From Neodothiora populina (Eukaryota), in NCBI RefSeq assembly GCF_041146345.1, contig NW_027191404.1, forward strand, positions 1,116,001 through 1,180,000: a DNA stretch of 64,000 nucleotides, written 5' to 3'. Each line of letters starts with the position of its first letter. Positions within the stretch are counted from its first letter, which is position 1. Below are positions 411-63,752 of this stretch, one piece after another. The position numbers and the translations under genes were made by a program. The notes beneath the pieces were generated by a model. The model did no database searches. It was not told the origin of the DNA and saw only the letters and a program-made list of their open reading frames with translations.

Positions 411-2828
411 ATGGCACCCAAAGGCAAGAAATCGGATGGCCACTCCAAGCAGCGCGAAGAGGAAGTCGAGGAGCCTCTTCAGGCCGTGGTAAGTGTCAAC
501 TCACTACTCTATAATAGTAGGCAGACATGAGTGCAGTCTATGCTAATAGCTTCAGATCCTCGCCGACTCTTTCGAGACCCGGTTCAGTCCCTTCAATCTC
601 GAACGACCTCGCGTAAGTCCCTCCTCCGGAAGAGCAAGACATGGCGCAATGCTCAGGACAGCATTTTGACTGATCATCTCAGTGCCTCATCCCTCTGGCG
701 AATACGCCGTTGATAGAATATACATTCGAGTTTCTTGCAAACGCCGGTGTCGAAGAGGTTTTCGTTTACTGCGGTGCTCAATGGGAGCAAGTTCAGGAAT
801 ACATCGAGTAAGAACGCCACCATGCACTGTAGCATTACCTCCGTAGCAGAGCGCAACACTTACAGTACGCGACACAGGCACACAAAATGGAAGTCGTCGG
901 TATCTCCCTTCTCCAGGGTGGAAATACTCCACAGCAGCTCTTCCTCTATCGGCGATGCAATGCGTGACCTGGATGCGCGCGCGATTCTGGCCAATGATTT
1001 CCTCGTTGTCTATGGAGACATCATCTCCAACCTACCCATCGACGGCGCCATGGCGGCTCATCGTCGACGTCGTCAGAAGGATAAAAACGCAATCATGACC
1101 ATGGTGCTGCGCGAGGCAGGAACGAGACACCGAACCAAGAGCCAGGACATCACCCCGGTCTTTGTCATCGACCCTACCAAAGACAGATGCGTCCATTACG
1201 AGCAGATGCGTCCCCACCAGACCAGCCGCTTCGTCAACATCGACCCCGACATTCTGAAAGAGCACGCTGAGATTGAGGTGCGCCAGGACCTGATTGACTG
1301 TGGAATCGATATCTGCACCCCTGATGTGCTCGCATTGTGGTCTGACAACTTCGACTACGAATATCCCCGAAAAGGCTTCTTGCACTCGGTGCTGAAGGAC
1401 TACGAGCTGAACGGCAAAACCATCCACACGCACATTGTCAACGATCATTACGCAGCCCGAGTAAAGAATCTTAGTGCATACGGAGCCGTCAGCAGGGACA
1501 TCATGGGCCGATGGGCCTACCCGATCTGCCCCGACAGCAATCTAGTAAGAGATCAGACATACAGACTCCTGAAGGGCAATGTGTATAGAGAAGAGGGAGT
1601 CGTGCTGGCTCGCTCCTGTCACATTGGCAAGAAGACGGTCATAGGTCGAGCGACGGCCATCGGAGACGGCAGTGTTGTCAGCAACAGCGTCATCGGCAGA
1701 AGGTGCGTTATCGGAAGAAACGTCAAGATCGACGGCGCATACATCTGGGACGATGCCTTTATCGGTGACGGATCAGTGATTCAGGATGCGATTATTGCAA
1801 ATGAGGCATCTGTGGGCAAGAGATGCAAGATCATGCCCGGCGCATTGTTGTCGTACGGAGTGCACATAGCTGATGGCATGACGGTCAAGGAGGGCAGCAG
1901 GATCACGCAAAAGAAACGAGTGGCAGGATACGAGGAGGACGAGATCGTCAGCGGTGACAACGACCTCAAGCTTGTCGGACAAAATGGCACAGGTTTCGAG
2001 TATGAGCCAGATGAGGATGAGGAAGACGAAGAGCACCTCGGTCTGAACCACGCAACCATGTACAACATGGCCAATCTGTCTCTATCGCAAGACTCGATCT
2101 CGACGCTGAATTCGGAAGATGACTACTCGGACGATTTCAGTGCGGGACGAAGTGGAAGAACGGAGAGTTTTGGGTCGATCGGATCAGTGGCATCAGACGA
2201 CAGCAATATCGACGAGCGGGCAGCATTGGATTTTCACCATGAAGCAGCGGCCAGTGTCTACGACTCACTACAAAAGGGCGACGAGAGCTCCAACATCCAA
2301 CTCGAGCTCACTTCTCTCAGAATGTCAGCCAACGCGTCTCCGTCGCAAGTGAGGAGAGCGGTCGTGGCAGCATTCATGAAGCGGATAGCTGGCCTCGTCG
2401 AGGACGGGCTCAGTCCGGCACAGGCGGTCAAGAAGACAATTCCGGTGCACAAAGTGCTGCTGGAGAGGACCATGTTCGATCACGGTGACGATCACGAAGA
2501 GAAGCCAGACCAAGTGGAGTTCTTGCTTCTCATGCAAACCGATCTCTGCCACAGAAAGGATGGCGAGCAGATCATGCTGTACGCGAGCAACGACCTCGCC
2601 ATGAGCGACGTCATCGACACAGAGGGCTTCGAACAATGGTGGCACGACGAGAAGAGTCAGGCCAACGATGAGCTGAAGCATGTGCGAAGCTTGATGGGAC
2701 AATTCATGGACGCCATTCTCAGCGACAGTGAGGAAGAAGAGGAAAGCAGTGATGAGGAGGAGGAGGAGGAGGAGGAGGAGGAGGATGACGATGACGAAGA
2801 AGAAGAATCTGATAGCGACGACGAGTAA
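411..2828 (+). CDS. GCD6: Translation initiation factor eIF2B epsilon subunit (4 exons)
   Basis: ATG at 411 (MAPKGKKS...EEPLQAV/ILADSFETRFSPF..ERPR/CLIPLANTPLIEYTFEFLA). Introns 489-555, 613-682, 808-877. Nucleotidyltransferase-like N-domain, hexapeptide (LbH) repeats, C-terminal W2 domain and acidic tail. Confidence 0.96.
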
Positions 2829-4351
2829 GAGGGGTCAGAGATGTACTTGTAAGCTATGATGACTGTAGAGTAGGCCTGCAGGCAAGGCAGTGATACCCAC
2901 GTGACACGGCGAAAGAGTATAAAGTCTGTTATACAGTTGATAAACGTATATATTATTGCAGTCGCACTCATATGGTCTCTCTGCGTTTGGGTGTGTATAA
3001 AGTTTGACTGGTGAGCTGTTTTACATGAGACAATACTTGCGGTGTTGTACTATTGAGTGAACCGGCCATGGCAGCACTTTGAGGTTTGTGAAGTAAGCCG
3101 CCGTCGAATACGAAGGTATATACCATACACCCACAACACTTTATCTGGAGAATATTGAGATGCTAGTAACCAGTAACGAACGTTGGAAAAATGCTGAATG
3201 ATTGCCCCTGTGTGAAAGGTACTTTTGTTTTTAAGTTGTCCACCCACATCAGTGGCTCAAATGGGGCTTTTTGTGGCATCTACCTGAAATCTGCCTGGAA
3301 GCCACCCGAATCTAGGCACAGTACGACCAGGAATCACAATTGATTACCTAAATCCAGGTACCGATCTCACACAACTCAAGTCAAGTGCACTGCAGTCAAC
3401 GAACAATGACGCATCCAGGCAGACGCGCGCTTTAGGCGATTTGATTGTTCAGCCTCGGAACGGCGTCGCCATTTTCAGGCTTCAGGGTCATAACTACAAT
3501 CAATAAGGAACAGGATAAGGGCTTCACATTCGGGTTCAAAATTGAATTGGAGGAACAAGTCCTTTTTGTGTCAAGTTTGACGACGACGACGAATACTTCT
3601 TTTTCTGTCTTTTCTTTGCTTTTCGAAAGTATCAGGCTTCACGCATCATCTCGTCTGCAAAAATCATCCTCTCTCTTTCCCCCACGCCTCATTCCCAAAA
3701 CCTTCTTCGAATCAGTCGTCAGTCGTCAGTCATCAGTCATCAATCATCCAGTCATCCCGTTCTAGACTCATTCACGTGCACCGGGTCGCCGACGCCCAGC
3801 AGGTATCCTGCCTGCGCAGCCAACACACACCCGCATAGACGCCCTGTCCGGAGTTTTTCCATCATTCTTTACTTGTCCGAAAAAGCAACGAGCGTCACTT
3901 GGTAGCAGTAGACATCGCTCTGCTCCCCGTATTAGTCGGATCTACACTTGTACGAGGCCCGGGTTCGTCACGCCTAGACTAGGCCTCATCCCGACCGGCT
4001 TTAACCATCCGTTCGTTCCCTCTGTCTCCGTGAATACCTGACCTTACCTTATCCCGCTTTCCGCTTCTCCACATCCACGACGACATAACCGCCGCCCACG
4101 TTGCCTGACAGCCACCACACGCAGACAGACATACCGCCGTCTTCCTCCTCCATCACCCACCCTTTTCCCTTCGTCATCTGAGGCGAAGGCTTCACATATC
4201 GCCCACCACGCCTCCACTCACGCGTAAACGAAAGCTCGAAGCCGCCACAGCGCAGAGTGCCCTTCTGTCTGTCGAGCCTGCTCTTGCTGTCACCAACCCT
4301 GACGCCACGAATCCGTCGTCATCGGCATCCGCCGCCCTCAAGAAATCCACA

Positions 4352-4384
4352 ACCACCACCACCACCACCACCACCACCACCACC
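4352..4384 (+). repeat. (ACC)n microsatellite (poly-Thr in the frame upstream of ARI1)
   Basis: About 11 tandem ACC units seen directly. Confidence 0.95.
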
Positions 4385-4555
4385 GCCGCCGACGCTGCCA
4401 CCGGTCACCAAAGGCCCAGAGGCAGCAGTCCTGTAAAGAAGCAGAAGGTCGAGCTTCAGCCGCCCGCAACTCCAACTCCTCCGACCTTGCTGTCGTCGCC
4501 CCCTCCCACGCTCAAAAGCGAAAAGGTGCACCAGGTGCAGCAGATCCAGACCCCA

Positions 4556-6234
4556 ATGGACTCGGACGATGACTTCAACTCTGTGGCCAGCGGGAGCGAC
4601 ATGGAGTTTGACGACGACCAAGACAGCAGTGTCGACTTTGGTGCCGCAGGTGAGTCTGCATGTGATTGTTCTCTTGCTGACAATGACTAATCAGATCCGC
4701 CATGTAGATTCGGACAACGATCTGGACCTCGAAGATGACCCCGATATCGGCTTCGACACACAAGAAAAAGACTACAAACCACGCAGAAAGGCCTACGAGG
4801 TCGACTTTTCCGTCTACAGCCCGCAAGACATTCAAGCACAACAAGACAAACAGGTCGAGGAGGTGTCAAATATCCTAGGTCAACCCCACGAAGCCACCGC
4901 TGTTCTACTACGCTACTCACGATGGAACAAAGAACGCCTGATCGAGCAATACATGGACAAGCAAGACGAGATCCTAGACAAGGCCGGCTTGAGCCATGAC
5001 GAGACGTGGAAGCCCGAGGTCAAGTCCATCGATGGCTTCATGTGCGATATCTGTTGCGACGATGCCCCCGGCATGCAGACCTTCGCCATGAAGTGTGATC
5101 ATCGCTACTGTGTTGACTGCTACAAACAATACCTGGCGCAGAAAATCAAAGAGGAGGGCGAAGCTGCTAGGATCAGATGTCCTGGCGACGCCTGCAACCG
5201 CATCGTAGATTCCAAGAGCTTGGACGTGCTTGTCGACTCGGATCTCCGGAACCGCTACCAGGAGCTGCTGACTCGGACCTACGTCGACGACAAGGACAAT
5301 CTCAAGTGGTGCCCTGCTCCGAATTGTGTTTATGCCATCGACTGCGCGGTCAAGCAGAAGGATCTCAACAGAATCGTACCCACTGTGCAGTGCGACTGCG
5401 GCCATCCCTTCTGCTTCGGCTGCACCTTGTCGGATCACCAGCCCACGCCGTGTGTCTTGGTACGGAAATGGCTCAAGAAGTGCGAGGATGACTCTGAAAC
5501 AGCGAATTGGATATCAGCCAACACGAAAGAGTGCCCCAGATGTCGCAGCACCATCGAGAAGAACGGCGGATGTAACCACATGACGTGTCGAAAATGCAAG
5601 AACGAGTTCTGCTGGATGTGCATGGGAGTGTGGAGCGAGCACGGAACGTCGTGGTACAACTGCAACCGTTACGAAGAGAAGAGCGGACATGACGCCAGAG
5701 ACGCCCAGGCAAAATCTCGCCAGAGTCTGGAACGATATCTTCATTACTACAATCGATATGCCAATCACGAGCAGTCGGCTAAGCTGGACAAGGACATCTA
5801 TCTCAAGACCGAAAAGAAGATGACACAGCTGCAATCGTCTTCTGGCATGTCGTGGATAGAGGTGCAATTCCTCGATTATGCTTCGCAAGCTCTGCAGCAA
5901 TGCCGACAGACTCTCAAGTGGACGTATGCATTCGCATACTATCTCGCCCGTAACAATCTCACCGAGATCTTCGAGGACAACCAGAAGGACTTGGAGATGG
6001 CCGTCGAGAACTTGTCAGAGATGTTTGAGAAGTCGACGGATCAACTGGCAGCGCTCAAGGTCGAGATGATGGACAAGACGACGTACTGCAACAAGCGCCG
6101 TGTCATTCTTCTCGATGACACGGCGGAGAACCTCAAGCAGGGTAAGTGTTTTGTTGGCAGCCATGGATTGCATACAGTGTGCTAACAATTTCTTTCTAGG
6201 CAATTGGGAATTTAACACATCCTTGATGCCTTAG
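4556..6234 (+). CDS. ARI1: Ariadne-family RBR E3 ubiquitin ligase (ARIH1/Hel1-like)
   Basis: ATG at 4556 (MDSDDDF). Introns 4650-4707 and 6142-6199. RING1 (CDICC..CDHRYC), IBR (KWCPAPNC), RING2 (KECPRC..IEKNGGCNHMTC) and Ariadne domain (LERYLHYYNRY). Stop TAG 6232-6234. Possible non-AUG extension from 4208 (see findings). Confidence 0.95.
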
Positions 6235-7250
6235 GTCAAGTCTGGAAGATCGCGTGCGCACGATACACAGCACCACACGGATCGCGGCCATTACCCAGCG
6301 GGCTTGGTTCTTTCTGACGTGCCTGACTTTGGGCTGCATGTCCGATCGCTCGACCGAAAGTGTGAACAAGTCGCCATACCCATGGACAACACTGAGTGAT
6401 GTCGGACTGGAGTGAGCGGCACCAACCGCATGACTCTTGGGTACACTCAGACCTGTCATATGGTACAGTGAGTGTCATACCAGCTCTACCACAAGTTGTG
6501 GTATGCACTGCTGCAAGCGATATTGCATTAACTACAGGCCCACCTGGTCCCACGACGAACCACGATCAGTAAACACTTCTTTTGTCTCGACACCAACAAC
6601 CAATCAACCATCCATTCGTTACTCCACCATCTGTTTCCTTTGTCCTCCTAGTCTTTTTTTCTGCCAGCCAAGCCAGCCAATCCTGCACAAGACGTTGTTG
6701 ACGACGATCGACATGCAACAAGATTACATATCACCGGCGCTTTTTTTCTTTTTTTTTCCAAGGGCTCTCTCTCATGCGTTTTGCTGCTGCTGTAATGGAA
6801 TACGTTGTGTGCGTTGTTCTTTCCCATCGCTTTCTTTTGGGTGGATGGGGAGGAAAGGGAATCTGCTTTGCCGTACTGGAGCAATATGGGTTTTGGAGAG
6901 GGGGTTTATTGACCGCTTCTTGGGTTTGGAGGTCTTTGGGGAATCGAGCTGGCGTTTTTTTAGGGAGCGGTGGGGGGGGGGGGAAGGGTTGTTAGCCGTA
7001 TATATTGACGCAATGACTGTGAATTACTTCTCGATTTTTCTTTCGATTTCTCCTTTTCTCACAGGAATGATTGATTTTTCTCCAAGAAGAAAGAGTCGGT
7101 CTGTGGAGTTCAGGCGTTTTTTTCAAACTCTTGGTTTTCATTGGGTTTTATATCTACAGGTGGAAAAGACTGGCAGGAGCCTCGCTGGCTCTGTCTTCGC
7201 TCTCCTTCTCTCTCCTTCTTTTTTCTCCTTCCAGGCAGCAGTAGCAACAG

Positions 7251-7252
<2 letters not shown>

Positions 7253-7285
<33 letters not shown>
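7253..7285 (+). repeat. (AAC)n microsatellite
   Basis: Tandem AAC/CAA units seen directly. Confidence 0.95.
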
Positions 7286-7286
<1 letters not shown>

Positions 7287-7480
7287 AAGACGACAGGACA
7301 GCTTACCACCATTATGATATCAAGGTAAACCCAGACAGACCACTCGCCCGAACCCAAAGGGAAAGGAAAACAAGTACCAGAGGAAGCAAAGAAACAACGG
7401 ACAAAGAAACCAACGAAGGGTTCTGGGAAACACGCTAGGGAAAGACTATACTAGTAGCTAAACAGACCAGAGAGCGGGAC

Positions 7481-7650
7481 AGACAAGAGACAGAGACAGA
7501 CAAGAGACAGAGACAGACAAGAGACAGAGACAGACAAGGGACAGAGACAGACAAGAGACAGAGACAGACAAGAGACAGAGACAGACAAGAGACAGAGACA
7601 GACAAGAGACAGAGACAGACAAGAGACAGAGACAGAGAAGAGACAGAGAC
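7481..7650 (+). repeat. 17-bp minisatellite, 10 copies (AGACAAGAGACAGAGAC)
   Basis: Ten head-to-tail units; copies 4 and 10 each carry one substitution. Confidence 0.95.
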
Positions 7651-7679
7651 ACGGCAAAACAGACCAGAGCGAGAGACCA

Positions 7680-7720
7680 GAAGAAGAAGAAGAAGAAGAA
7701 GAAGAAGAAGAAGAAGAAGA
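7680..7720 (+). repeat. (GAA)n microsatellite
   Basis: About 13 GAA units just past the stop of the INP1-like gene. Confidence 0.95.
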
Positions 7721-7729
7721 AACACTACA

Positions 7730-7848
7730 TTACATGCCCCACTCCTCCTCATCGTCCGAGAAATCAAAAGACCCCGGCACGACGCGCCTGTGGCCGCGGC
7801 GCTTTTGCATTTCCGTTTCCGTTTGCAGGACCGAGGTTCTTGTCGCTC

Positions 7849-7883
<35 letters not shown>

Positions 7884-10022
7884 GATGATGTTGATGCCGA
7901 GGAAGAGGAAAATGATGACGACGATGACGGGGAAAAGGACTTCAAAGGCAGAGGGGAGAAACCTAGGGAGGCGTAGGCTGATGCTGGGGATATCTCTTGT
8001 TTGCCGTCTATAAGCGGTAACGTGGAGGACTTTGACGGGGTGATTTCTCTGTGCAAGAGCTCGTTATCGTCGGCGCCGTGCAGAGGCACAGTGATCGCCT
8101 CGTAGAACTCGTCGCGTCCATGCCGCCGACCATCGTGGCCGTGCTCGTCATCGTCAGTCCCATGCTCAAGCGCCGAAAGCAATATCCTCGCGGCAATGCG
8201 TAACATGATATGGACGAGATGCGCCGGAGGACCCAGGAAGATGGTGGCTGTTTTCTTGACCAGAGCCGTTGTCGTCGAGGATAGAGTTGTCACTGTTGAT
8301 GATGACGGAGTGGTTGGCGTCAGAGATCGCAGGGCTTGTTTCGTCGCTGATGATGCGGTTGCGGCGGGGAGGAGGAGGGTGGTGGGCGTTACTGTGCGCG
8401 TGTGGTGGGTGCGGCGCACGAGATGTTGGTCGGGCGGTGTTTCTGTGCTAGGGGCCGTGCCTGATGCGGACGCGGTAGGCGCGGGTGAGGGTTGTCGCGT
8501 TGGTGGCAATGAGTGGTAGCTTGATGATTGAGATAGGGAGATTGTAGAGTTGTTTTTGCCATTCGCTGGCCATGAGTCGACGCAAGAGAAAGAGGCCGAG
8601 TTGGATGAAGAGTCTAGAGACGGCTCCGGTGCAGGAACTGAAGTGGCGATTGGTCGTGGCGTCGAGGGAGAGTTGAGGAGAAGAGAGTCTTCACTTTCCG
8701 AGATGAGAGTTGGCACTCCAGTCGCTTCCACATGATCACCATCCCCTTCTCTTGCGCTTTCCTCTTCCGTTACAAGAAAAGGTGAGGTGAATTCGTCCTG
8801 CAATGACTCAGGGGTAGGCGGTAGTTTGGGTGTCGACGCATCCGAGTGTTGTCGTCGTTTGATTGGCCGAGGAATCAAAGTGCTGCCGCTTTGCTGTCTC
8901 ACTGCCTCGTTGATTCTCCCGGCAATCTTGGGGACTGTGGTCTTGGACGGAGCGCGCGATAGCTTGCTGCTGAGCTGTGGCGGAGCTGTGACGGAGCGGG
9001 CGGTACGTGAGTGTAGAGGAGAAGGGGATGGCGTGTGGCTGTCGACGGTGGCTGGTCTCTCTTCTGCTTCTGCTCCTGCTTGTGATTCCTCCTCGTCCTC
9101 TTTCTCCTCCTCGAGTCTGCTGTATTGATGGCCTTGCGCATGTTGTACGGCATAACGTCCCTCGTCGCGGATGCTGCTCAACTGCGACAAAGCCTCCAAA
9201 TTCCCTCTTTCGCCTTCCGGTCGCCATCTCCTCTCGAATGTCCATTTCTTCGCCCGCCCCACAGATGCACTCCGCGACAGACTCCTTCGTGGCACTTCGG
9301 GCATCTCGGGCAGGGCATCCCCGAAGCCTCTTCGAAAGGGACAAGCGGTGCGCTCATAATACAGCACTTTACTCAAGGTGAGCTTCAACCCTTCGACCAG
9401 CTCTTCCTCGCCCGGGTTTGTGCTGGGTAGCTCGATCCGGTAGTACGTGTCCGGACGGATGCGAAAGACAAACTTGGAGACGCCGTCGACGCACCAGCAC
9501 TGCGATCGCGGGAGGATGGCATGGAGCAGAGCGCCAGAGTGCAGGAAGGAGACGCTGCCGGGCACGCGATAGATCTCCAGAGGACCTGGGACCCTGGTCA
9601 AGAGATGTGAGAACAACGAAAAGAGACAACATACCAGCTGCGAGTGTCCTCTCCGTCGCATTCTCCCATGCCAGCCCATTCCCCCAGTCTCCGTCGCTTC
9701 CGCCGCTATAGCTCTCGAAAGTGCTGCTGCTTCTTCTGTTGACCGAAGCCGACGATCCCGGTCGTGTCAAGGCATTAGCAGATGCCGCCGTGGTGAAGGA
9801 TATAATGCGCGCTCCGGGGTGGACATAGAGCGTCTCTATGGCTTCGGACGCCCCGATCTCCACCCCACTGCCACTTGTCTGCCTCGTCGCGTTTGGTGCA
9901 TCGGTCAATTTGGCCGGCAGAGTGAATGAGCGCTGCAGGGATGCCGCATTTCTTTGCGTGAACGAAGAAGTGTTGTCATTGTTAATAGGGTGATGCACTA
10001 CTGGTGTCGTCGGCGTCGACAT
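7730..10022 (-). CDS. INP1: Inheritance of peroxisomes protein Inp1-like (2 exons)
   Basis: ATG 10022; intron 9586-9634 joins TERTLAA to GPLEIYRVPGSVSFLHSGALLHAILPRSQCWCVDGVSKFVFRIRPDTYYRIELP, typical of filamentous-fungal Inp1-domain proteins. Long S/T-rich tail. Confidence 0.8.
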
Positions 10023-21876: not shown

Positions 21877-22593
21877 AGTCTAATGGTAAGGTAGGGTACT
21901 GTACTGTACATGGTACTTGTACATTCCTTGCACTCCACTCCCCTTTAACTCCACATTTGACAATTTACAAAGTGGCATTAGCAGTTAATTTTGGCTGTGG
22001 TATGCCACGATTGACAAGCTCTCACCGTTCTACTCTCTGACACGGCGCCTTGCATTGCTTCACCTTGTCTTTATCCCAACTTTTTTTTAACTCTTTTCAA
22101 AACTTTTTGCCTTTGCCTGTGCCTTGCCTTCACGGCTGCTGCTCATCACTGCGCGCTCCCGTGCTCCCGAAAGATACCCGCGCACCACCCGCGCGATTCG
22201 TCACAGCACTCTTCGTTTTGTGTTTTTCTCCCACATCTGAGCTCTTGCACGGTGCTGTATCTTGCTCTTAGTCGTCTTTGAATCTCAGGCCCTCTCCGCT
22301 GCCCGAATCTGGCCATCGCACATCACAGGAATCGCAAGTCGCACATCGCACCTCACCCATCGTCTCTCATCTCGCGTAAGCTAGCCTGTGCACGCCTCTG
22401 TACAACCCTACGCAATAACAACGCCTAGTGTGGTGCCTGTCTGTCTGAACAAACATAATCGCCAACCTTTGGCTTTTCTGTGTGATTGCAACCTTTGTTC
22501 CGGAAGTGCAGCCTGGCGCTTTCCGATAGGACTTCCAAGGACACGCGATCATACTCGTATCTGGAGCACTAATCTCCCCAAGTCCTTGGGTTC

Positions 22594-25181
22594 ATGTCGG
22601 TCGCAACACTGCATGCTCCCTCCAGAGCCTCGACGTCCTCTTCATCTTCCTATCTCCCAATGATGGCCCGCCAGAACACCACCCGGTCGTCTCACGATGG
22701 CTCGAGATCCACGCGCACATCGAAGCGCTACTCTGTCACTGCGCTCTACCTCTCTATGAATGCAAACTCGAGAGAACTAGAAATTGAGGACGACCTTGCC
22801 CGCGGTATGCTCCATTGCTCCTCCAACCTGGCCCAGTACTAGTACTGACAGTCCATGCAGCACAGAAGATATTGCGCGAACTGAAAGCGAAGATCTCTTC
22901 ACAATCGAAGAAGAACTTCGTGCTAGAAAAGGATGTCAGATACCTGGATTCTCGCATAGCACTGTTGGTGCAGAACCGTATGGCTCTTGAAGAGGTACGA
23001 CCCACGGCATCTGACTGCGAGTGTTTCCATTGACGATACTATAGCGCAATGAGGTCGCCGATCATCTTGACGACACCGCAGAACTCGACGAGGGCACTTT
23101 CCCCAACGATGACAAAACACAAACATATGGCAATCTGCTCTTCCTCTTACAGTCCGAACCCAAGCACATCGCTCACTTGTGCCGACTTGTGACCATGGCC
23201 GAGATCGATCAATTATTACAGACTGTCATGTTTACAATTTACGGAAACCAGTACGAGAGTCGCGAAGAGCATCTTCTGCTCACCATGTTCCAGGTACATG
23301 ACTTTCTTTGAGCGCTGATTTTATGGTATTTGTTCTCGTATGCTAATTAGTGCGTGTAACGACAGTCTGTCTTGACCCACCAATTCGATAATACGGCTGA
23401 CTACTCCTCTTTGCTCCGCGCCAACACTCCAGTATCTCGCATGATGACAACATACACTAGAAGAGGACCCGGTCAGGGATATCTGAAGACTGTGCTCTCT
23501 GACCAGATCAACTATGTTACTTCGCAATTGAAAGAAAACGATCTCGAGATCAACCCGCTCAAGGTATACGAGGCCTTGATGAACGATCAAGGCTCGTCAC
23601 GAGGTTCCATACACGGAATGCCAATAAGTGTCACAGCCGAAGAAGCAGCAGAGAACCCCAAAGTACAGGCTGTGATTGGACAGAGAGTTGGTCTGCTGAT
23701 GCGTGTTGCCAACACCTTCCTCGACACCATCATCAATGGCTTGGAGGAGACTCCGTATGGCATCAGATGGATCTGCAAGCAGATCCGAAGTCTGTCGAAA
23801 AGGAAATATCCCGATGCTCAGGACCAGACGATATGCACCCTCATCGGAGGCTTCTTTTTCCTTCGTTTCATCAACCCCGCCATCGTCACGCCCCGATCAT
23901 ACATGCTCATCGAGCAAGTTCCGGCCGATAACCCAAAACGCACATTGACATATATTGCCAAAATGCTTCAGAACTTGGCGAATAAGCCTTCGTATGCCAA
24001 AGAGCCTTACATGGCCGTTTTACAGCCCTTCATTCAGCAGAACAAGGACCGTATGAACAAGTTCTTGCTCGATTTGTGCGAGGTGCAGGACTTTTACGAA
24101 ACGCTCGAGATGGACAACTATGTGGCTTTGTCGAAGAAGGATCTGGAATTGTCCATATCGCTTAACGAGGTCTACGCCATGCACGAGCTGCTCGAGAAGC
24201 ATTCGACCGAGTTGACCAAGGATGAGGGCTCGCATCTGAACCAGCTCCTCCAAGAATTAGGCCCTGCCCCGAAGCAGTTGCCCCGCAAAGAGAACCGCGC
24301 CATCAACCTGCCTTTGTATAGCAAGTGGGAGACTGCTCTGGACGACCTGACAGCTGCCCTGGATATCACCCAGGAGGAGGTATTTTTCATGGAGGCGAAG
24401 TCCACCTTTGTCATGATTCTGCGATCCTTGCCAACCAGCGCTGTGGCGACGAGGAGGCCGTTGCGCTTGGAGAGGGTGGCGGAAGCAGCAGCGACTACCA
24501 AGAACGACTCGATCATGGTCCGCAAGGGCATTCGGTGCATTGAGCTTCTGAATCAGCTGAACGAATGGGGGGTCGTGGACAAGGGTGATAATTATGCCTC
24601 GTTGCGGGACGAGGTCGAGCAGGAACTACAACATCTCGGCTCGCTCAAGGAGAAGGTCGTCACAGAGACGGGCAAGCTTGACGAAGTATACCGAACGATA
24701 CGCGACCACAATACATATCTCGTTGGCCAGCTCGAGACGTACAAGTCCTATTTGCACAACGTGCGCGGTCAGTCCGAAGGTACAACGAAGAGGATGCAGA
24801 GCCAGAAGGTACTCGGTCCTTTCAAGTACACGCATACACAACTCGAGAAGGACGGAGTGATTCAGAAGAGCAATGTCCCGCCGAATCGCCAGGCCAACAT
24901 ATACTTCAACATGACCAGCCCGAGTCCTGGAACCTTCATCATTTCACTACACTACAAAGGTAAGCCCATAACGGCGCTACTGATGAGTGGCATGTGGCAT
25001 TGCTAACAAGGGCTTCACAGGTCGCAACCGAGGACTTCTGGAACTCGATCTCAAGCTTGATGATCTGCTCGAGATGCAAAAGGACGGACAGGAAGACCTC
25101 GATCTAGAGTATGTCCAATTCAACGTTTCGAAACTGCTCGTTCACCTGAACAAAAAGTTCGCCAGGAAGCGAGGCTGGTGA
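22594..25181 (+). CDS. gapA: Ras GTPase-activating protein (GapA/Sar1 type, RasGAP plus RasGAP_C)
   Basis: [13 protein letters not shown] arginine finger and [13 protein letters not shown] signature. Introns 22805-22860, 22995-23044, 23294-23365, 24960-25020. Probable 5'-UTR intron from 22376. Confidence 0.93.
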
Positions 25182-36186: not shown

Positions 36187-37116
36187 GATCTCGCTACGCG
36201 CAGGCCATGCGTGTGGCTCATGCGAGAAAAAAAAAAGACGTCTATGCAGTACTCTCTTGGAATGACGCTCAGGACACACGCTCACACGCGCGGCATGTTT
36301 GAATTTCTGGCCGGCGAAGGTAAAGATCAGGAACAGTGATGGGTACTGCTCAAGCCTGTACGGGAGAGCCGAGACTCGAAGGATAGAAGCTTCCGGGGAT
36401 GAGGTCAAGCCCAAACGGCTTTCGCACAAACGGTAGGGCAGAAGTGGGTACTAACGATGTGCAAACGGATGACAGTTATGACGAAGGGGGAGAGAAAAGA
36501 AGGCTTGCGGTCAGTTGAAGCGATGGTAATCTTGCTGGATTTTCGAATGGGTTCCCGTTGCGTGGGAACGATCGATGGTGAGGGCAACTCGCTCCAGATG
36601 CTAAACCCAAGATTACAACCCTTGCTAGTAGATCTTCACCGTGCCCTCGGAGCAAGGATGGCTTGAAGCAGGCGCAGACGCTAATGGAGGTTAATCTACG
36701 CGTACTTAATTAGTTGGCCTCAGGCGGTGATAGAAGGAGGGGCTTTGGACACACAGCTGCTTGACCTGCTTGGGTAGGTCAGGTATACTACTGTAGGGTG
36801 CAGAGTAGTATGTACAGCTCACACTTCACGGAGCAGCACTGTATGCGTGTAATTGTGCGTGCGTAGGTGTGTGGGAGTGTGTGTGAGTGTGGTGTGTCGC
36901 CGTCGAGGACCTTCCCCAGTCGAGACCCTTCAGAGCCCAAGACCAGCTTCGAAACTTTGTCGATGGTTCGTTTCCTGCTAGCGGTCGGACACGTTTCTAA
37001 ATGCGGACCAATCGTGTGGCAGGCTCGCTGTCAGAAGAACAGAGGGAGATGACTGGTTTCGCAGATTACGTTGAAAAGAAAGGAGGGGTGTGGGATTGCG
37101 AGCTCACTCCACTCTA

Positions 37117-37118
<2 letters not shown>

Positions 37119-37150
<32 letters not shown>
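37119..37150 (+). repeat. (GCT)n microsatellite
   Basis: About 10 GCT units in the long region upstream of the Zn2Cys6 gene. Confidence 0.95.
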
Positions 37151-39257
37151 GAGGAGTTGGGATGATGATGACTACCGCTATTGCAGCTGATACTATGGCA
37201 GCTCGCAAGACAAGTCCCGCAACCTAGGTTTTAGCCAATGTTGCACAAACACGCCGCTTTCGTGATCATCGGGGTCACGTTCGCCTTCTTTAATTGGCGG
37301 TCTGCTTCGAGATGGTTAAGACGCGCAGCGTGAAGCAGGCAGGGATCCCATAGATCAGAGCAAGGGAAAAAAAAATTGGCCGAGAGCAATTCCAAAATCA
37401 GATCTCGAGGCTTGAAGTCAAGGCTGAGCTGCTCAGCACCTCCCACGTGCGCGTAGCTTTTAGATTGGCCAGGGGAAAGTCGGGCAGCGCATCTTCCGCA
37501 CTGCTACCACAACACAACTTGCCACCCACCGCTAGTCGAAACTATGACAGAATGGCCGGGAAAGCCTCTATCGCATTAGACCTTGAGTCCACCACGCCAG
37601 GTTCGGAGCTTCCACGTACTCTTTCTCTCGGCTTTCCCCCTTCCATGCGCATCAATGCTGTCCTTCAATAACACAATGCTGCTTTCCATATGAACTGAAC
37701 CACACCTGGAAGCTCGCGACGCAGACCTCATGCATGTACATCCAATCAGATCTCCATGATCTCTGCAGCAAGGTAATATCCCTCTGGATCGGTCGTGTGA
37801 GATCGGGTACCGGCCAGTCGCTTCTCAGCCGACCAGCGGCGGTGTGCGGGCAGTGATCTGCTGGGGGCGATGTGTTTCAGGATTAAACTTATTTCAGTCA
37901 ATGCTTATATGCCGGGTGTACCTGCCCACCCGCGTTCTTTGAGTTTGATGATTGAGCGGAAGCTCGAGATTTACAGCCGAGTGTACCGTCGGATCACTTA
38001 AGGTCGCCGAACCTTGATCTTAGTAAAGCGGGGGTTTCTTGCAATGTTCTGTGATTCCAGAGCTTCTATCATGGAGTACTGTGGTGTGTGTTCAGCAGAG
38101 GTGTAGAGCACCGGCATTGCGGTTTGTGGTGAGCGACCATTGGCCGACCGAGTCCACTCGATGTGGCCCGCGTAGGCTGCTTATTGGCGTTTTGGCCTCC
38201 ATAGCATGTCACCAAGACCCCAAGGACGCTGCATGCTGGCGTTTGCAGCAATAAAATTCCTACACTAAGGTACTCGAGAAAAGTCCATGAAGCATGTATG
38301 ACTCACGCTACAAGACAGCACAACAAGATCCTTGCAGTAGCACCGAACGATTCACCGTATAATGCGTACGCTTGCTCCCATGAGAATCGGCATGGGTTAA
38401 CCGCTCATTGTTCGTTCGTGAAAACAGCATTGCCATATAGATAGCCTATTCTTGACAAATCATTAGATTCGCGCCGCCGCTATCCGTTGTAGACCGCAGT
38501 CGGTCGTGCTATACTAAGGTAGGTACGGTATCCGATTATGTACGAGTACTGTATATCCGACCGGTGCATCGCATCTTGTCTACAGTACGGGATATGCAGG
38601 CCCGATGGTACGCAACGCGCACAAAGGAATTCGAGGCGCTTTACTTGCAGGCGAATGTGGCGTTGGCTTCAGGTAGCAAGCGCTTCATGGTAGACGCGGC
38701 TGCAAGACTATCGGCATAGCAGCGGTGGTCGGTTGTACAGGGCCAAGATGTTTTTGCGCCGCCTTCCAAATACGAGGGCTTACTACTGGCCATCGCACTG
38801 CAAGGGTAATATATTGTGGATAGTGATCTGCACTCTGGCGCCTCACAGCTTTGACACCTGTCATAATATCTGCAGCAGCGTTTCGCTAACTTTCTGATCA
38901 GTGATTCCAGTGTCCTGGTCATTCAAATAACAAGCCTATTATGCCGAACTGTTCCGCTGGTTTATTCATTGCCCTAATAAAAATGCTCGCGGGGGGCTTG
39001 AGGCCATCGTGCAAATACAAATCTTCCCGTAACCTTCTCATACTCAATGAAGACATGTCGTGCAGGGCTAGTAGCATGGCAGTGAAACGGTTTGCCCATC
39101 GGATCGATGGTGTGAGGGGCGCATGCATACAAACTGTAGTCACGGGTAAGCGAACCAATGATTGGGCCAACAGATATAGTAATCATCAATGTCATACTGG
39201 ACAGAAGCTGTTTCCGCTGTCCCAGAGGATCGGGGAGCGAGGAGAAGGCTGTAAACT

Positions 39258-57835: not shown

Positions 57836-59333
57836 AGGACAGCGATTGAGCATTAACGAAATACCATGACATTTTCCAGATCATAAACCATGTTACTCTG
57901 CACATGGTGACCATTTGCCGTAGATGTCAGACTGTTCAGTTCCTCGGATCATGTACAGAAGTAGTGCTGCATGCGGCAGAAAGAAAGTGGAATCTCGAAG
58001 GAGAGGAATGCTAAGATAGTGAAGATGGTGCTGGCTTGCATGGTAGGGCACAAGTCACCATGCATGCAGGATGCACTAACACAATTACTGGATCTCTGAC
58101 AAGTGATTGGGCAATGTGATGACTTGGTGATTGGACTTAGAACCACACCGGGCTGGAAGCTCCAGGGTCCTGAGCCAAGTGGCCAAGCACGAAGCCCCCG
58201 TGCTGGCGAAACACGACTAAGCCAAGCTGATACACTTGTCCAGCGTCTGTGGAAGAAGGGCCTTCCGGTCTACTTGGCCGGTGGGCGTTTCAGGTTTCAC
58301 CAGCAGTGTTTCCAGCTAAAATTGATCGCTGGCGGTGGAAAGATGGAGTTTGATCGACCTCCTGGAGTCACAGTGCACAGGTAGAAAATAGCCAGGAGAA
58401 TGTGCTATGAACCAATGAAACTGCATGGTTGCGTATTTGGCGTAAATTGCATGGCGGCTCCTGGTGTGAAGGCGGTTGTCTGGTGTGCCCCGCCTTCAGC
58501 AGTGTGCAGCATAAACCACCCACTTTCACGCCTGACTGCATTGATTGCTGACTCTCTGTGTCTTGTCAACCAATGCTTTGATACGTTGCTTTTCCCACTC
58601 CTCATCCTTTGCCTCTCTCTGCTGAAACGACCCAGCTGAGCTCTGTCCCATCGACCATCTTGTGTTGTAGATACAAACATAGAAACCATCCGAGTCTATC
58701 CTCAGCGTACACAGCTCGAGCCGAGTTCCTGTGTGGATACATAAACAAAGGTGCGGGCCGGGAGTTTTATGGGGGATAGCTAGAGCTAGATGCAGAGCAG
58801 CGCAGCACAGCACAGCACAGCACATTATTTCCAAGTACTTTTAGCATACTTTAAAGCACGAGAACTAAGCGATACAAGCCCCGCAGTCGTCGACGTCTGA
58901 GCTTCCTCGCCCTCGTTCACGCCCTTTGTGCAATTCGAGCATCGGAAGATACAAATAACACTCGCCGGAAGTGGAAGAGAGCACTGCCTGATTCAGTCGG
59001 ACGCTCAGGTCTACTTTGTTTCTTTCTGTCTACAGTCCGCGGCACAAAGCAAAGAAAGCAATCTGCCATCCAGGGCGCTCACACTTCATCTTGCTTGACC
59101 TGACAATCCCAGCGCCAGACCGCCCTTCAACAACCCTTACCCATCCATCCGTGCTTGTGCTTGCGCATTCCAGTTCCAGCTCGGATTCCACCTCATACCT
59201 TCCCGTCTCGCTGCGCCAGTCGCCGGATCCAGAAGCTCGTCCGCACGTAACTTCCTCCTTGGCTGCCTGACAGGACGCACAATTGTCGCAAAGAAAAAGA
59301 AACCTTGCCGCTGGTCGACTGCAACAACCTCTT

Positions 59334-59443
59334 GTACGTCAATTAAACACCATTGCGCATCCTGCCTGATTATTTCTTGTTGACGTGGCTGTCGGAAATT
59401 TGGTTCCACTGCTTCCTCTGCGTATTAGCTGACTCTGAATCAG
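59334..59443 (+). other. Probable 5'-UTR intron of the MAPK gene
   Basis: GTACGT donor, GCTGAC branch, CAG acceptor, within an ATG-free leader. Confidence 0.6.
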
Positions 59444-59552
59444 ACAATCTACGCCGGGATCCTGTCGCATTTGTCAACATACATATCAATATCACGTCCA
59501 ATCCCTCTTTCATCTTACCTTTCCCCAATCACACATATACACAAAACTCACC

Positions 59553-60732
<1,180 letters not shown>

Positions 60733-61986: not shown

Positions 61987-63752
61987 TCAAGTGACTTTAG
62001 TCCCATTACCGGGCAAGGCAACCCTGAACAGAGCAAAAGGGCGCTTTCTATCCTCCGTGCCAGGCCAGATCATGGGCGAGAAACACAATTGATTGACTAA
62101 AGACGAAAAGGTCAGTAACGCGGCCCTTCCATACACAATTCCCTTTCCCCCCAATGGGACAAAAAAAGAAGGGAAGCAGAAGAGGAGAGAAGAAAACTCA
62201 CCAGTGAAATAAAGATAGCGTCCGGCAACACTCATGGTATCAACCCAATTAATCCTGGGATCGCGCACAAACACCCCATCAGTGCCATTGGCGGGATTGA
62301 ACACCCCTATCGCATTCTGCTCCGCGATGCCATGATAGATGAACCCGTTGGAGTCCGTCTCGTAGCCGTCGCTGACGCCCTTTTCGCCGCGCGTCTGCAC
62401 GCTGCCTTGGGCCAGGGCTTCGGAGAAGGCGCTGTTGTCGCGTAGCCGCGCTGTCGGAATAGAGTACAGGATTCGAGAGCCCACGCCGCCGAAGTAGAGG
62501 TCTTCGCTGTCCGCGGAGAGGGCGATGCCGTCTTTTTTTTGTGTATTGAATGTTAGTGATTGAAAACTGGGGTAGCAGAGAGAAAGGGGATGGATAATAG
62601 GGGATTGGAACTGACCTGCGCCGAAACCGAGATAGTTCAGTGGTTGGCCTGCGCTGTACGAGTAGAGCGGACGGCCCCAGACGTAGCCTACGAAGCCTGT
62701 CGTCGAGGCGACGTACTTGCTTCTGTCCAGGTGTCTCCAGCTCTCGCCCGTGCCTAGGTCGACTGTGATGAGGCCGGTGCGGCCTTCTAAGGAGGAGTCG
62801 GTGATGTAAGCCACGCCTTGGCCGCTGGCTGTGATGTTGATTCGCAGGTCGAAGCGGACGTCGTTGAGGTACGAGTCTGCGGGTGCTACTGTGGTGGGGA
62901 AGACGATTGTCTTGAAGACGGTGTCGTTTGACAGATTGATGCCTACTAATTTGGGGCCTCCGTAGCTTGCGGGTACCACAGTGCCGTTGGGAGACATTAC
63001 TGAGGTGGGAATAGGTTGTCAGTTTCATTGTTCTTCCGAATGTCCATCTCAAGCAACCGTCAGACAGCAGGAAGACATTGTGCATGTCTCATAAATTCGG
63101 AAGGGAGGGCCGAGTCATTTTTCTGAGTATTTGATGATGCACAATTGGGAGAGGTTCACAATATACCGATCAACTCGCATCTCAACACAAAGAGAGCAGT
63201 TCAAACTCACCACGACCAGTATCAAGTACCCATAACCGATCCGCGGAATCAACAACAACACTCTGCACGCCAATAAAGTGATTCTGATAATTGGCTCCAC
63301 TCGGCGGATAGGTGCTCATGTTGATCGCGCCACCAGGAGGACTGTTCCAGTCCACGCTGGGATATGCTCTCTCTGAGCTGTTCGCGGTGAGTTCAGCAAC
63401 GGTGTATTTGCCATTGGTGCCGTTGTTGGTGTTATTCATGTCCAGACCGCCTGTAGGAAAGAGATCAGAGGGTGATAAGAATGATAGAACTGAAGAGCGT
63501 GATATCTTGAGTGCACGATGTGTACAGGAGACGAGGGGTGGCTGCGAGAACTATTGTCATAAGAAATGACTTACCAGGGTAATTAGAGAACATGCGTCCA
63601 GTCGACGAAACGGCAATGCCCGTCGGCCATTGATCATAGTACAAGTGAACCAATTCGAGAGGTGGTCCTTGTTGCCCCGAGTCGGTGATGAGTTGGCTAG
63701 AACCCAAGAAGGGCAGCAGCATGGCTCCCGCATAGAGCGATGTCGGCCACAT
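61987..63752 (-). CDS. Secreted major royal jelly / yellow-family beta-propeller protein
   Basis: Signal peptide MWPTSLYAGAMLLPFLGSS, then WPTGIAVSSTGRMFSNYP, IGVQSVVVDSADRLWVLDTGR, YLNDVRFDL, AYITDSS, DGIALS, RDPRINWVDT. Four introns. Confidence 0.93.

Follow-up and report, generated by a model that had tools for sequence, protein, structure and literature searches.

The window analyzed here is a stretch of 64,000 nucleotides (nt) from Neodothiora populina (NCBI RefSeq assembly GCF_041146345.1, contig NW_027191404.1, positions 1,116,001 to 1,180,000 of the forward strand), and the gene in question lies on its + strand, where positions 4556–6234, from an AUG to a stop codon, code for an Ariadne-type RBR ubiquitin ligase according to Pfam domains and orthology (all coordinates are relative to the window). 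A preliminary description of this DNA had proposed that an in-frame ACG codon at 4208 is the start of an N-terminal extension with basic motifs. Our comparison of 66 distinct extensions, including that of the window, supports this proposal: the homologous position holds a start-competent codon throughout, A stands at −3 in 63 of the 64 non-AUG cases, and the extension evolves in a coding-like manner. It is therefore likely that one mRNA gives rise to a long and a short Ariadne isoform via ACG 4208 and AUG 4556, respectively, and that the long form is nuclear. From these sequence features, we infer initiation at the ACG, use of both starts, nuclear import, and the ratio of the isoforms.

Open frame and ATG-free leader upstream of the Ariadne gene

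Rereading the window confirmed what the preliminary description had reported of the region. The Ariadne frame is open for 149 codons (4109–4555) between TGA 4106–4108 and ATG 4556, and no ATG occurs on the + strand at 3407–4555, the neighboring ones being at 3406 and 4556. ACG 4208 stands in CCCACC-ACG-CCT, with A at −3, and ATG 4556 stands in ACCCCA-ATG-G, with C at −3 and G at +4. Translation from 4208 gave the claimed 116 codons with RKRK, 12 Thr, PVKKQKVE, and QTP before MDSDDD, and the microsatellite within them, (ACC)n at 4349–4384, is indeed a triplet repeat that preserves the frame. ACG 4208 is the sole in-frame near-cognate codon from TGA 4106 to the RKRK block that has A at −3.

The gap between ATG 3406 and ATG 4556 (1150 nt) is the longest among the 1203 + strand ATGs of the window, whose mean gap is 53 nt. 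For the 1145-nt stretch, a first-order Markov model predicted 7.1 ATGs, and zero was reached in a fraction of 0.001 of 2000 simulations. Other long ATG-free stretches were found at 58790–59553 (763 nt) and 22002–22594 (592 nt) on the + strand and at 36294–37267 (973 nt) and 62331–62995 (664 nt) on the − strand; these may be further long AUG-free leaders or low-complexity DNA.

Conservation of the candidate start codon and its context

Orthologous DNA was obtained from metagenome contigs, which were scanned using aligned sequences from the beginning of exon 2. The tblastn step was passed by 195 stretches, the best 80 of which were retained (L001–L080). The extension was in frame with the downstream ATG in 78 of the 80 loci, the other two (L019 and L054) being cut by the contig end, and all 78 informative loci as well as the window have a stop-free extension beginning T-P-P-x-T-R-K-R-K. 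At protein identities of 70% and 50%, the 66 distinct extensions form 47 and 27 clusters, respectively. The column homologous to codon 4208 (start column) was taken from a MAFFT protein alignment, in which L025 and L027 were shifted one column by hand; since this column was chosen from the protein alignment, codon identity did not bias the choice. The relatives were found via the core domain. When the extension and exon 1 were searched as one protein against longer proteins, no match with E ≤ 0.01 was obtained among 3863 candidates.

In the 66 extensions, the start column was ACG in 60, ATT in 2, CTG in 2, and ATG in 2, and never the Thr codons ACC, ACA, or ACT; all the codons replacing ACG are competent for initiation. 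The share of ACG among the other Thr codons of the same extensions was 107/493 (21.7%), and the Thr just before RKRK, four codons on, was encoded by ACT in 18, ACG in 15, ACC in 11, and ACA in 2 of 64 sequences. Counted by the 47 clusters at 70% identity, 41 had ACG with A at −3, two had ATT with A, two had CTG with A, one had ATG with C, and one had ACG with C. The single non-AUG extension lacking A at −3 was L070.

The residue preceding the start column varies (T, I, N, or K), and every such codon starts with A. Before the start, C was found at −4 in 61, A at −3 in 63, C at −2 in 48, and C at −1 in 50 of the 66 sequences; after it, C was found at +4 in 52, C at +5 in 65, T at +6 in 56, C at +7 in 51, and C at +8 in 64. 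The C at −4 is thus kept even though the codons in which it takes the wobble position specify differing amino acids. Because the varied residues all bring A to −3 and the wobble C at −4 is retained, what is conserved before the start is the nucleotide sequence, in a Kozak-like manner. No amino-acid conservation was observed upstream of the start column in the orthologue alignment, and none at the base level beyond −5, while downstream of the column it is the protein that is conserved. The nearest in-frame stop precedes the start column by 2–98 codons, and by no more than 30 in 45 of the 66 sequences; in 64 of them, no in-frame ATG was found between this stop and the start column. A near-cognate codon conserved in position, identity, and good Kozak context, as found here, is what characterizes a conserved non-AUG extension.

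The bases following the start codon also deserve mention. Codon 2 is CCT in 45 of 65 extensions, versus 84 of 362 among the other Pro codons, and T at +6 is kept even where codon 2 encodes Ser, Ala, or Gly. Codon 3, which is also mostly Pro, has no bias of this type. CCA occurs at codon 2 in three extensions, two of which are the ATG-start sequences L025 and L027. From the CCT bias and the CCA of the ATG-start sequences, the silent +6 base seems to be linked to the near-cognate start.

Turnover of the start codon was seen in two forms. L025 and L027 (both at position 2694) carry ATG in the start column with C at −3. L070 (2689–2706; duplicate, L073) has ACG with C at −3 plus a new in-frame ATG five codons on, from which its extension would begin MTLKR.

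A start assisted by a hairpin downstream of the ACG was also considered and rejected on the folding z-scores of the 66 sequences: for the 60 nt downstream, the mean z was −0.68, only 10 of 66 were below −2, and the value for the window itself was +0.26, so that a conserved hairpin was not supported.

Coding evolution of the extension

The extensions occur in 27 different lengths from 44 to 118 codons, all in frame, and contain 0 stops in frame 0, versus 88 and 129 in frames +1 and +2, respectively. In 12 disjoint close pairs, the differences at codon positions 1, 2, and 3 numbered 34, 31, and 77, and the codon changes comprised 62 synonymous and 58 non-synonymous ones. The Arg codons in the basic block alternate between the CGN and AGR families. 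The orthologous leaders, which the preliminary description had allowed might turn out to be broken or to lack basic motifs, are open and in frame and keep these motifs. Coding-like evolution with conservation starting at the start codon again agrees with a conserved non-AUG extension.

One alternative is that the leader is untranslated, and that the string around 4208 and the region of the basic motifs are RNA or DNA regulatory elements of a 5′ untranslated region or promoter. The conservation of the silent C at −4 and T at +6 demonstrates nucleotide-level constraint and favors this alternative, and the evidence for translation of the extension is comparative, which also counts against the two-isoform reading. 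Against the alternative stand the frame held over all 27 lengths with the stop counts given above, the excess of third-position changes, the synonymous variation of Arg and Lys codons in the conserved block, and the replacement of ACG only by ATT, CTG, or ATG. In addition, Rfam had no family above its threshold in 3300–4700 (best, PVX_3; 17.5 bits against a cut-off of 42), and the downstream sequence has no conserved hairpin. We regard an untranslated regulatory leader as extremely improbable.

Contigs covering the leader

Contigs of sequencing run X2, which is of the same sample as DNA run X1, were compared with the window. One X2 contig skips 4650–4707 and 6142–6199, each an exact GT..AG interval, and another (record 9) is collinear with 3575–4339 and gapless. 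Since both introns are skipped, we read X2 as RNA-derived and transcriptome-like. On this reading, the contig that reaches 3575 would place ACG 4208 inside the transcript, at least 633 nt from the 5′ end. A transcription start downstream of 4208, which had been named as a possible objection, is accordingly improbable, given that this complementary DNA (cDNA)-type contig begins 633 nt before the ACG. In the parts of the leader covered by contigs (3575–4339 and 4403–4555), no intron was found. The contigs of both X1 and X2 break at 4340–4402, and the break is therefore considered an assembly effect, not an intron.

X2 coverage of 2800–3525 was nil and was not used as evidence for the transcription start. 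Run X3 consisted of three small records, two of them less than 90% alike and mostly diverging from the window, and was set aside. At about 3511–3593, in the leader or promoter, X1 splits into several contigs of 54–56 nt, some with a one-letter gap, which suggests a length polymorphism or a heterozygous site.

These contigs also bear on the possibility that the extension is translated from another start, namely, a spliced upstream AUG exon, an alternative transcript, or the near-cognate codons CTG 4178 or ATA 4196. The frame is open from 4109, 33 codons before the ACG, CTG 4178 and ATA 4196 are in frame, and ATGs are present upstream at 3406 and beyond. Nevertheless, the cDNA-type contig runs collinearly through 3575–4339 with no joint, and the bases at −2 and −1 before the ACG are C and C, not an acceptor AG; a spliced-in AUG exon, the second objection that had been raised in advance, was rejected on these two grounds. 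Furthermore, an in-frame stop lies only 2–9 codons upstream of the start column in 10 of the 66 orthologues, amino-acid conservation begins exactly at the ACG column, and CTG 4178 and ATA 4196 have C at −3 and no conserved counterpart. Translation from a start other than ACG 4208 is accordingly very improbable.

Downstream AUG and proposed leaky scanning

If both starts are used, the sequence between them should let scanning ribosomes pass. Within the 11,769 nt of the extensions, we found 3 ATGs, versus 56 expected (37–78 in 200 Markov simulations). L070 accounts for two of the three and L074 for the third, which is in frame; the internal ATGs of L050 were set aside as an artefact, because a second MDSDD beyond the true start had been taken. 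Counted from the start column, the closest upstream ATG lies at a median distance of 246 nt, versus a background median gap of 33 nt. Such depletion is expected if ribosomes must arrive at the ACG unhindered and those passing it must still find the AUG. The downstream ATG is present in all 65 sequences compared, each with G at +4 and 48 with a purine at −3, where the window has C.

We propose the following mechanism. The 5′ leader of the Ariadne mRNA would be long (at least about 980 nt), unspliced, and devoid of AUG. Of the scanning 43S complexes, some would initiate with Met-tRNAi at ACG 4208, whose context (C-A-C-C) is near-optimal for fungi, giving the long isoform with a 116-residue disordered extension that contains three short conserved motifs, namely, (M/T)PPxTRKRK, another cluster of K/R, and LPATPQTL. 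Complexes that do not initiate there would pass through the stretch, which is free of AUG in any frame, and start at AUG 4556 by leaky scanning, giving the short isoform. With the basic clusters acting as nuclear localization signals, the near-cognate start would set the nuclear share of the ligase.

It is also conceivable that the ACG-started form is essentially the sole product and that AUG 4556 merely encodes an internal Met, so that a regulated isoform pair would not exist. The conserved acidic block beginning with MDSDDD is possibly kept for protein reasons, AUG 4556 of the window has C at −3, and in the ATG-start lineages L025 and L027 most ribosomes are expected to begin upstream. On the other hand, most scanning ribosomes normally bypass a near-cognate codon, and the downstream Met is universal in the sequences compared, with its constant G at +4 and frequent purine at −3. 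The scarcity of ATGs between the two starts is what selection for passage to the AUG predicts, and the ATG-start lineages retain a weak C at −3. We judge a single long product to be improbable.

Several points weigh against the two-isoform reading. C, not the usually favored G, is found at +4 of the start column in 52 of the 66 sequences. Run X2 is labelled ‘DNA?’, and its cDNA nature was deduced from the two skipped introns; moreover, its two contigs are unjoined across the microsatellite (4340–4402), and the contigs cannot fix the 5′ end. Many of the loci are possibly close relatives, in which case raw counts overstate independence, and the counts of 70% clusters are safer. Beyond its three short blocks, conservation of the extension is poor, with a mean column identity of 18%, and constraint on it is weak, since non-synonymous changes nearly equal synonymous ones. 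Nuclear import is called solely from the look of the basic clusters, and RKRK followed by L misses the strict consensus K-(K/R)-X-(K/R).

Motifs of the extension and their possible roles

In the window, the extension contains, in order, TPPLTRKRKL, twelve Thr, PVKKQKVE, and PPATPTPPTL, and is followed by MDSDDD. In an AlphaFold model, it had a mean predicted local distance difference test score (pLDDT) of 56, a predicted template modeling score of 0.14, and no secondary structure, which fits a disordered tail bearing short linear motifs. RKRK and KKQK are thus clusters of basic residues in a region predicted to be disordered, as classical nuclear localization signals are, and four consecutive basic residues are a commonly used pattern of such signals. 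These two clusters most likely act as nuclear localization signals, judging from their composition and setting. The run of 12 Thr encoded by (ACC)n is an insertion that none of the other extensions displayed in the alignment (A2) has, and it helps to make the extension of the window, at 116 codons, one of the longest, most others having 44–59. The contigs of both runs break at the repeat, whose length may be variable or hard to assemble.

The long form could be made as proposed while its motifs serve a role other than import, such as nucleolar or chromatin binding, docking regulated by phosphorylation (TP/SP), an N-terminal Pro degron after removal of Met, or contact with a cullin-RING partner. 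Codon 2 always encodes a small residue (Pro 51, Ser 7, Ala 4, Thr 2, and Gly 1 of 65), and a small second residue permits removal of the initiator Met. Several T-P sites are conserved, including that of LPATPQTL. Against a role of this kind, a pair of separate K/R clusters in a disordered tail at the N-terminus is the most common form of import signal, and the functions listed are themselves compatible with import. We consider a purely non-import role unlikely, although it carries some weight.

A more speculative idea, to which we give rather little credence, is that C-A-C-C-ACG-C-C-U-C-C with Pro-Pro or small residues at codons 2 and 3 forms a tunable near-cognate initiation module. The share of ACG initiation may be set by the bases past +4, by slow Met-Pro-Pro formation that depends on eIF5A, or by both, and the nuclear/cytoplasmic ratio may respond to start-codon stringency (eIF1/eIF5, eIF2 phosphorylation) or to the eIF5A/polyamine state across Pezizomycotina. 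An exposed N-terminal Pro might make the long form a conditional degron substrate.

Distribution and annotation in other fungi

Among the 120 orthologues listed, more than 15 residues before the usual MDSDDD were annotated in 31, because an in-frame ATG happens to lie upstream. These long tails are unrelated at first but come to share (T/K/I/N)-T-P-P-x-T-R-K-R-K, another basic cluster, and LPATPQTL before MDSDDD. Three proteins have Met exactly at the start column (MPPTRKRK, MPIATRKRK, and MTLTKKRK). Most of the listed orthologues begin at the downstream AUG, and the others at sporadic, non-conserved upstream AUGs. If the ACG start is confirmed, the Ariadne gene appears to be misannotated in most of the fungal records examined.

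According to the source names, the annotated extended orthologues come from Dothideomycetes, Eurotiomycetes (Aspergillus, Penicillium, and Blastomyces), and Lecanoromycetes. A search with a profile of the extension gave 179 clusters (50% identity) at E ≤ 0.001. The named profile search added Leotiomycetes (Lachnellula), but its 9 hits were among the 8000 candidates sharing the most words and say little about breadth. Most likely, the longer, ACG-started form is common to many filamentous ascomycetes and has been missed by standard annotation.

Distant fragments of the extension (proteins P0129–P0278) include a second common form with Ile at the start column (e.g., K/T/N then IPPTTRKRKAAEA), to which the Lachnellula proteins belong. 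This form suggests that some lineages use AUU, AUC, or AUA in place of ACG. Three of the protein records depart from the rest: P0008 seems to read through the first intron, as it has extra residues where others are spliced; P0004 has an unrelated N-terminus of 191 residues; and P0128 is fused to an AAA ATPase (1412 residues).

Gene structure and neighboring DNA

The features of the locus are compiled in Table 1. In exon 2, Pfam detected UBA_ARI1 (63 bits, 2.2e-17; cut-off, 26.9), IBR (76.4 bits, 1.8e-21; cut-off, 24.3), IBR_1 (60.7 bits, 1.2e-16; cut-off, 27), Ariadne (44.1 bits, 2.9e-11; cut-off, 23.5), and zf-C3HC4 (21 bits; cut-off, 21). The order of domains, UBA-like, RING1, IBR, Rcat (RING2), and C-terminal Ariadne, is that of Ariadne subfamily RBR E3 ligases. 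Exon 2 had 2028 relatives at E ≤ 1e-50, with source names including ariadne-1, dbl4, and RBR-type E3; the best was a Dothideales protein with 90% identity over 100% of exon 2, and identity to an Aureobasidium protein was 85%. The stretch NGGCNHMTCRKC is present in the window protein, and the putative catalytic Cys of Rcat is assigned by reference to work on HHARI.

Table 1 Features of the Ariadne locus and its leader, with the basis of each assignment.
Feature	Position	Strand	Basis
In-frame stop TGA bounding the extension frame	4106..4108	+	ORF and sequence reading
Initiation context CCCACC-ACG-CCTCC (conserved YCACC ACG CCU CC)	4202..4215	+	Base counts, 66 sequences
5′ leader before ACG, in cDNA-type contig, within ATG-free 3407–4555	3575..4207	+	X2 record 9, gapless and collinear 3575–4339
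ACG, proposed near-cognate start of long isoform	4208..4210	+	Homologous column ACG 60, ATT 2, CTG 2, ATG 2 of 66
N-terminal extension, 116 codons, predicted disordered	4208..4555	+	Translation; in frame in all orthologues; pLDDT 56
First basic cluster RKRK (within TPPLTRKRKL), resembling a nuclear localization signal	4223..4234	+	R8 invariant, K7 and K9 at least 90% in alignment A2
In-frame (ACC)n microsatellite, 12 Thr	4349..4384	+	ACA then ACC x11
Second basic cluster KKQK (within PVKKQKVE)	4436..4447	+	K/R-rich second cluster, consensus PxKK, in A2
Third conserved block PPATPTPPTL (consensus LPATPQTL)	4460..4489	+	P89 invariant in A2; also in annotated orthologues
AUG of proposed short isoform	4556..4558	+	ATG in 65/65 sequences; M117 invariant
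Exon 1 from AUG, acidic MDSDDDFNS... region	4556..4649	+	Border at GT..AG joint 4650–4707 skipped in X2 contig
Exon 2: UBA-like, RING1, IBR, Rcat, and Ariadne domains	4708..6141	+	Pfam matches; 90% identity to best orthologue
Exon 3 with stop TAG 6232–6234	6200..6234	+	Joint 6142–6199 with GT..AG

The upstream neighbor (819–2825, + strand) encodes eIF2B epsilon (LbH_EIF2B, 2.2e-37; W2, 2.7e-09) with a long acidic C-terminal tail. Past the 3′ region of the Ariadne gene, the frame 6434–7438 holds another (ACN)n run, coding for eleven Thr, and 7439–8013 is tandemly repeated low-complexity DNA, in which open frames on both strands read RQRQTRDRDRQETETDK repeats and long homopolymeric runs of E, K, L, Q, and C.

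Comparison with known systems

Among the papers listed in the literature search, none described a non-AUG start or an extension for any Ariadne protein or ARIH1. In its domain set and acidic N-terminal region, the window protein is like human ARIH1/HHARI, Drosophila Ariadne-1, and S. pombe dbl4, the last of which is named for localizing to DNA breaks. If the present proposal is confirmed, a conserved regulator of cullin-RING ligases would consist of two proteoforms, likely differing in localization, made from one mRNA in filamentous ascomycetes, and the silent conservation at −4 and +6 would provide a natural test case for near-cognate efficiency in fungi.

Mammalian FGF2 is a familiar example of this kind of arrangement: upstream CUG starts add a basic extension, and the long forms are nuclear, the AUG form being outside the nucleus. 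The Ariadne gene would share with it near-cognate starts, a basic N-terminal extension, and two localizations from one mRNA. FGF2 differs in being an animal growth factor with several CUG starts, an Arg/Gly-rich extension, and reported involvement of an internal ribosome entry site, and the two are unrelated in sequence. Yeast ALA1 (ACG) and GRS1 (UUG) produce, by leaky scanning, minor isoforms that are extended from near-cognate starts and carry a targeting signal. These two are tRNA synthetases and the signal is a mitochondrial presequence, whereas the extension of Ariadne has a basic motif of nuclear type.

The cpc-1 gene of Neurospora crassa has an extension that begins, across Pezizomycotina, at an ACG (NCC8) with a conserved context; this codon initiates in vitro, and the extension evolves as coding sequence with a dN/dS (ratio of non-synonymous to synonymous substitution rates) of 0.35 (Ivanov et al. 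2017, PMC5487733). NCC8 of cpc-1 is the closest described case. What the two genes share is an ACG in a conserved, near-optimal context (A at −3), which precedes the annotated AUG in frame, together with conservation in Pezizomycotina, coding evolution, and a long leader. Unlike Ariadne, cpc-1 has regulatory upstream open reading frames, several near-cognate starts, and G at +4 of NCC8, whereas the Ariadne leader has no upstream open reading frames that begin with AUG, one dominant start, and C at +4. For the extension of cpc-1, no role as a localization signal is described, and its initiation has been proven in vitro, while the Ariadne case is supported by sequence comparison. Non-AUG starts that add targeting signals are known, but few are conserved so deeply and cleanly as this one, with ACG in a fixed context in 41 of 47 clusters and only other start-competent codons in its place. 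The Ariadne ACG extension thus appears to be a newly found instance of a known phenomenon, one unusually well supported by comparison.

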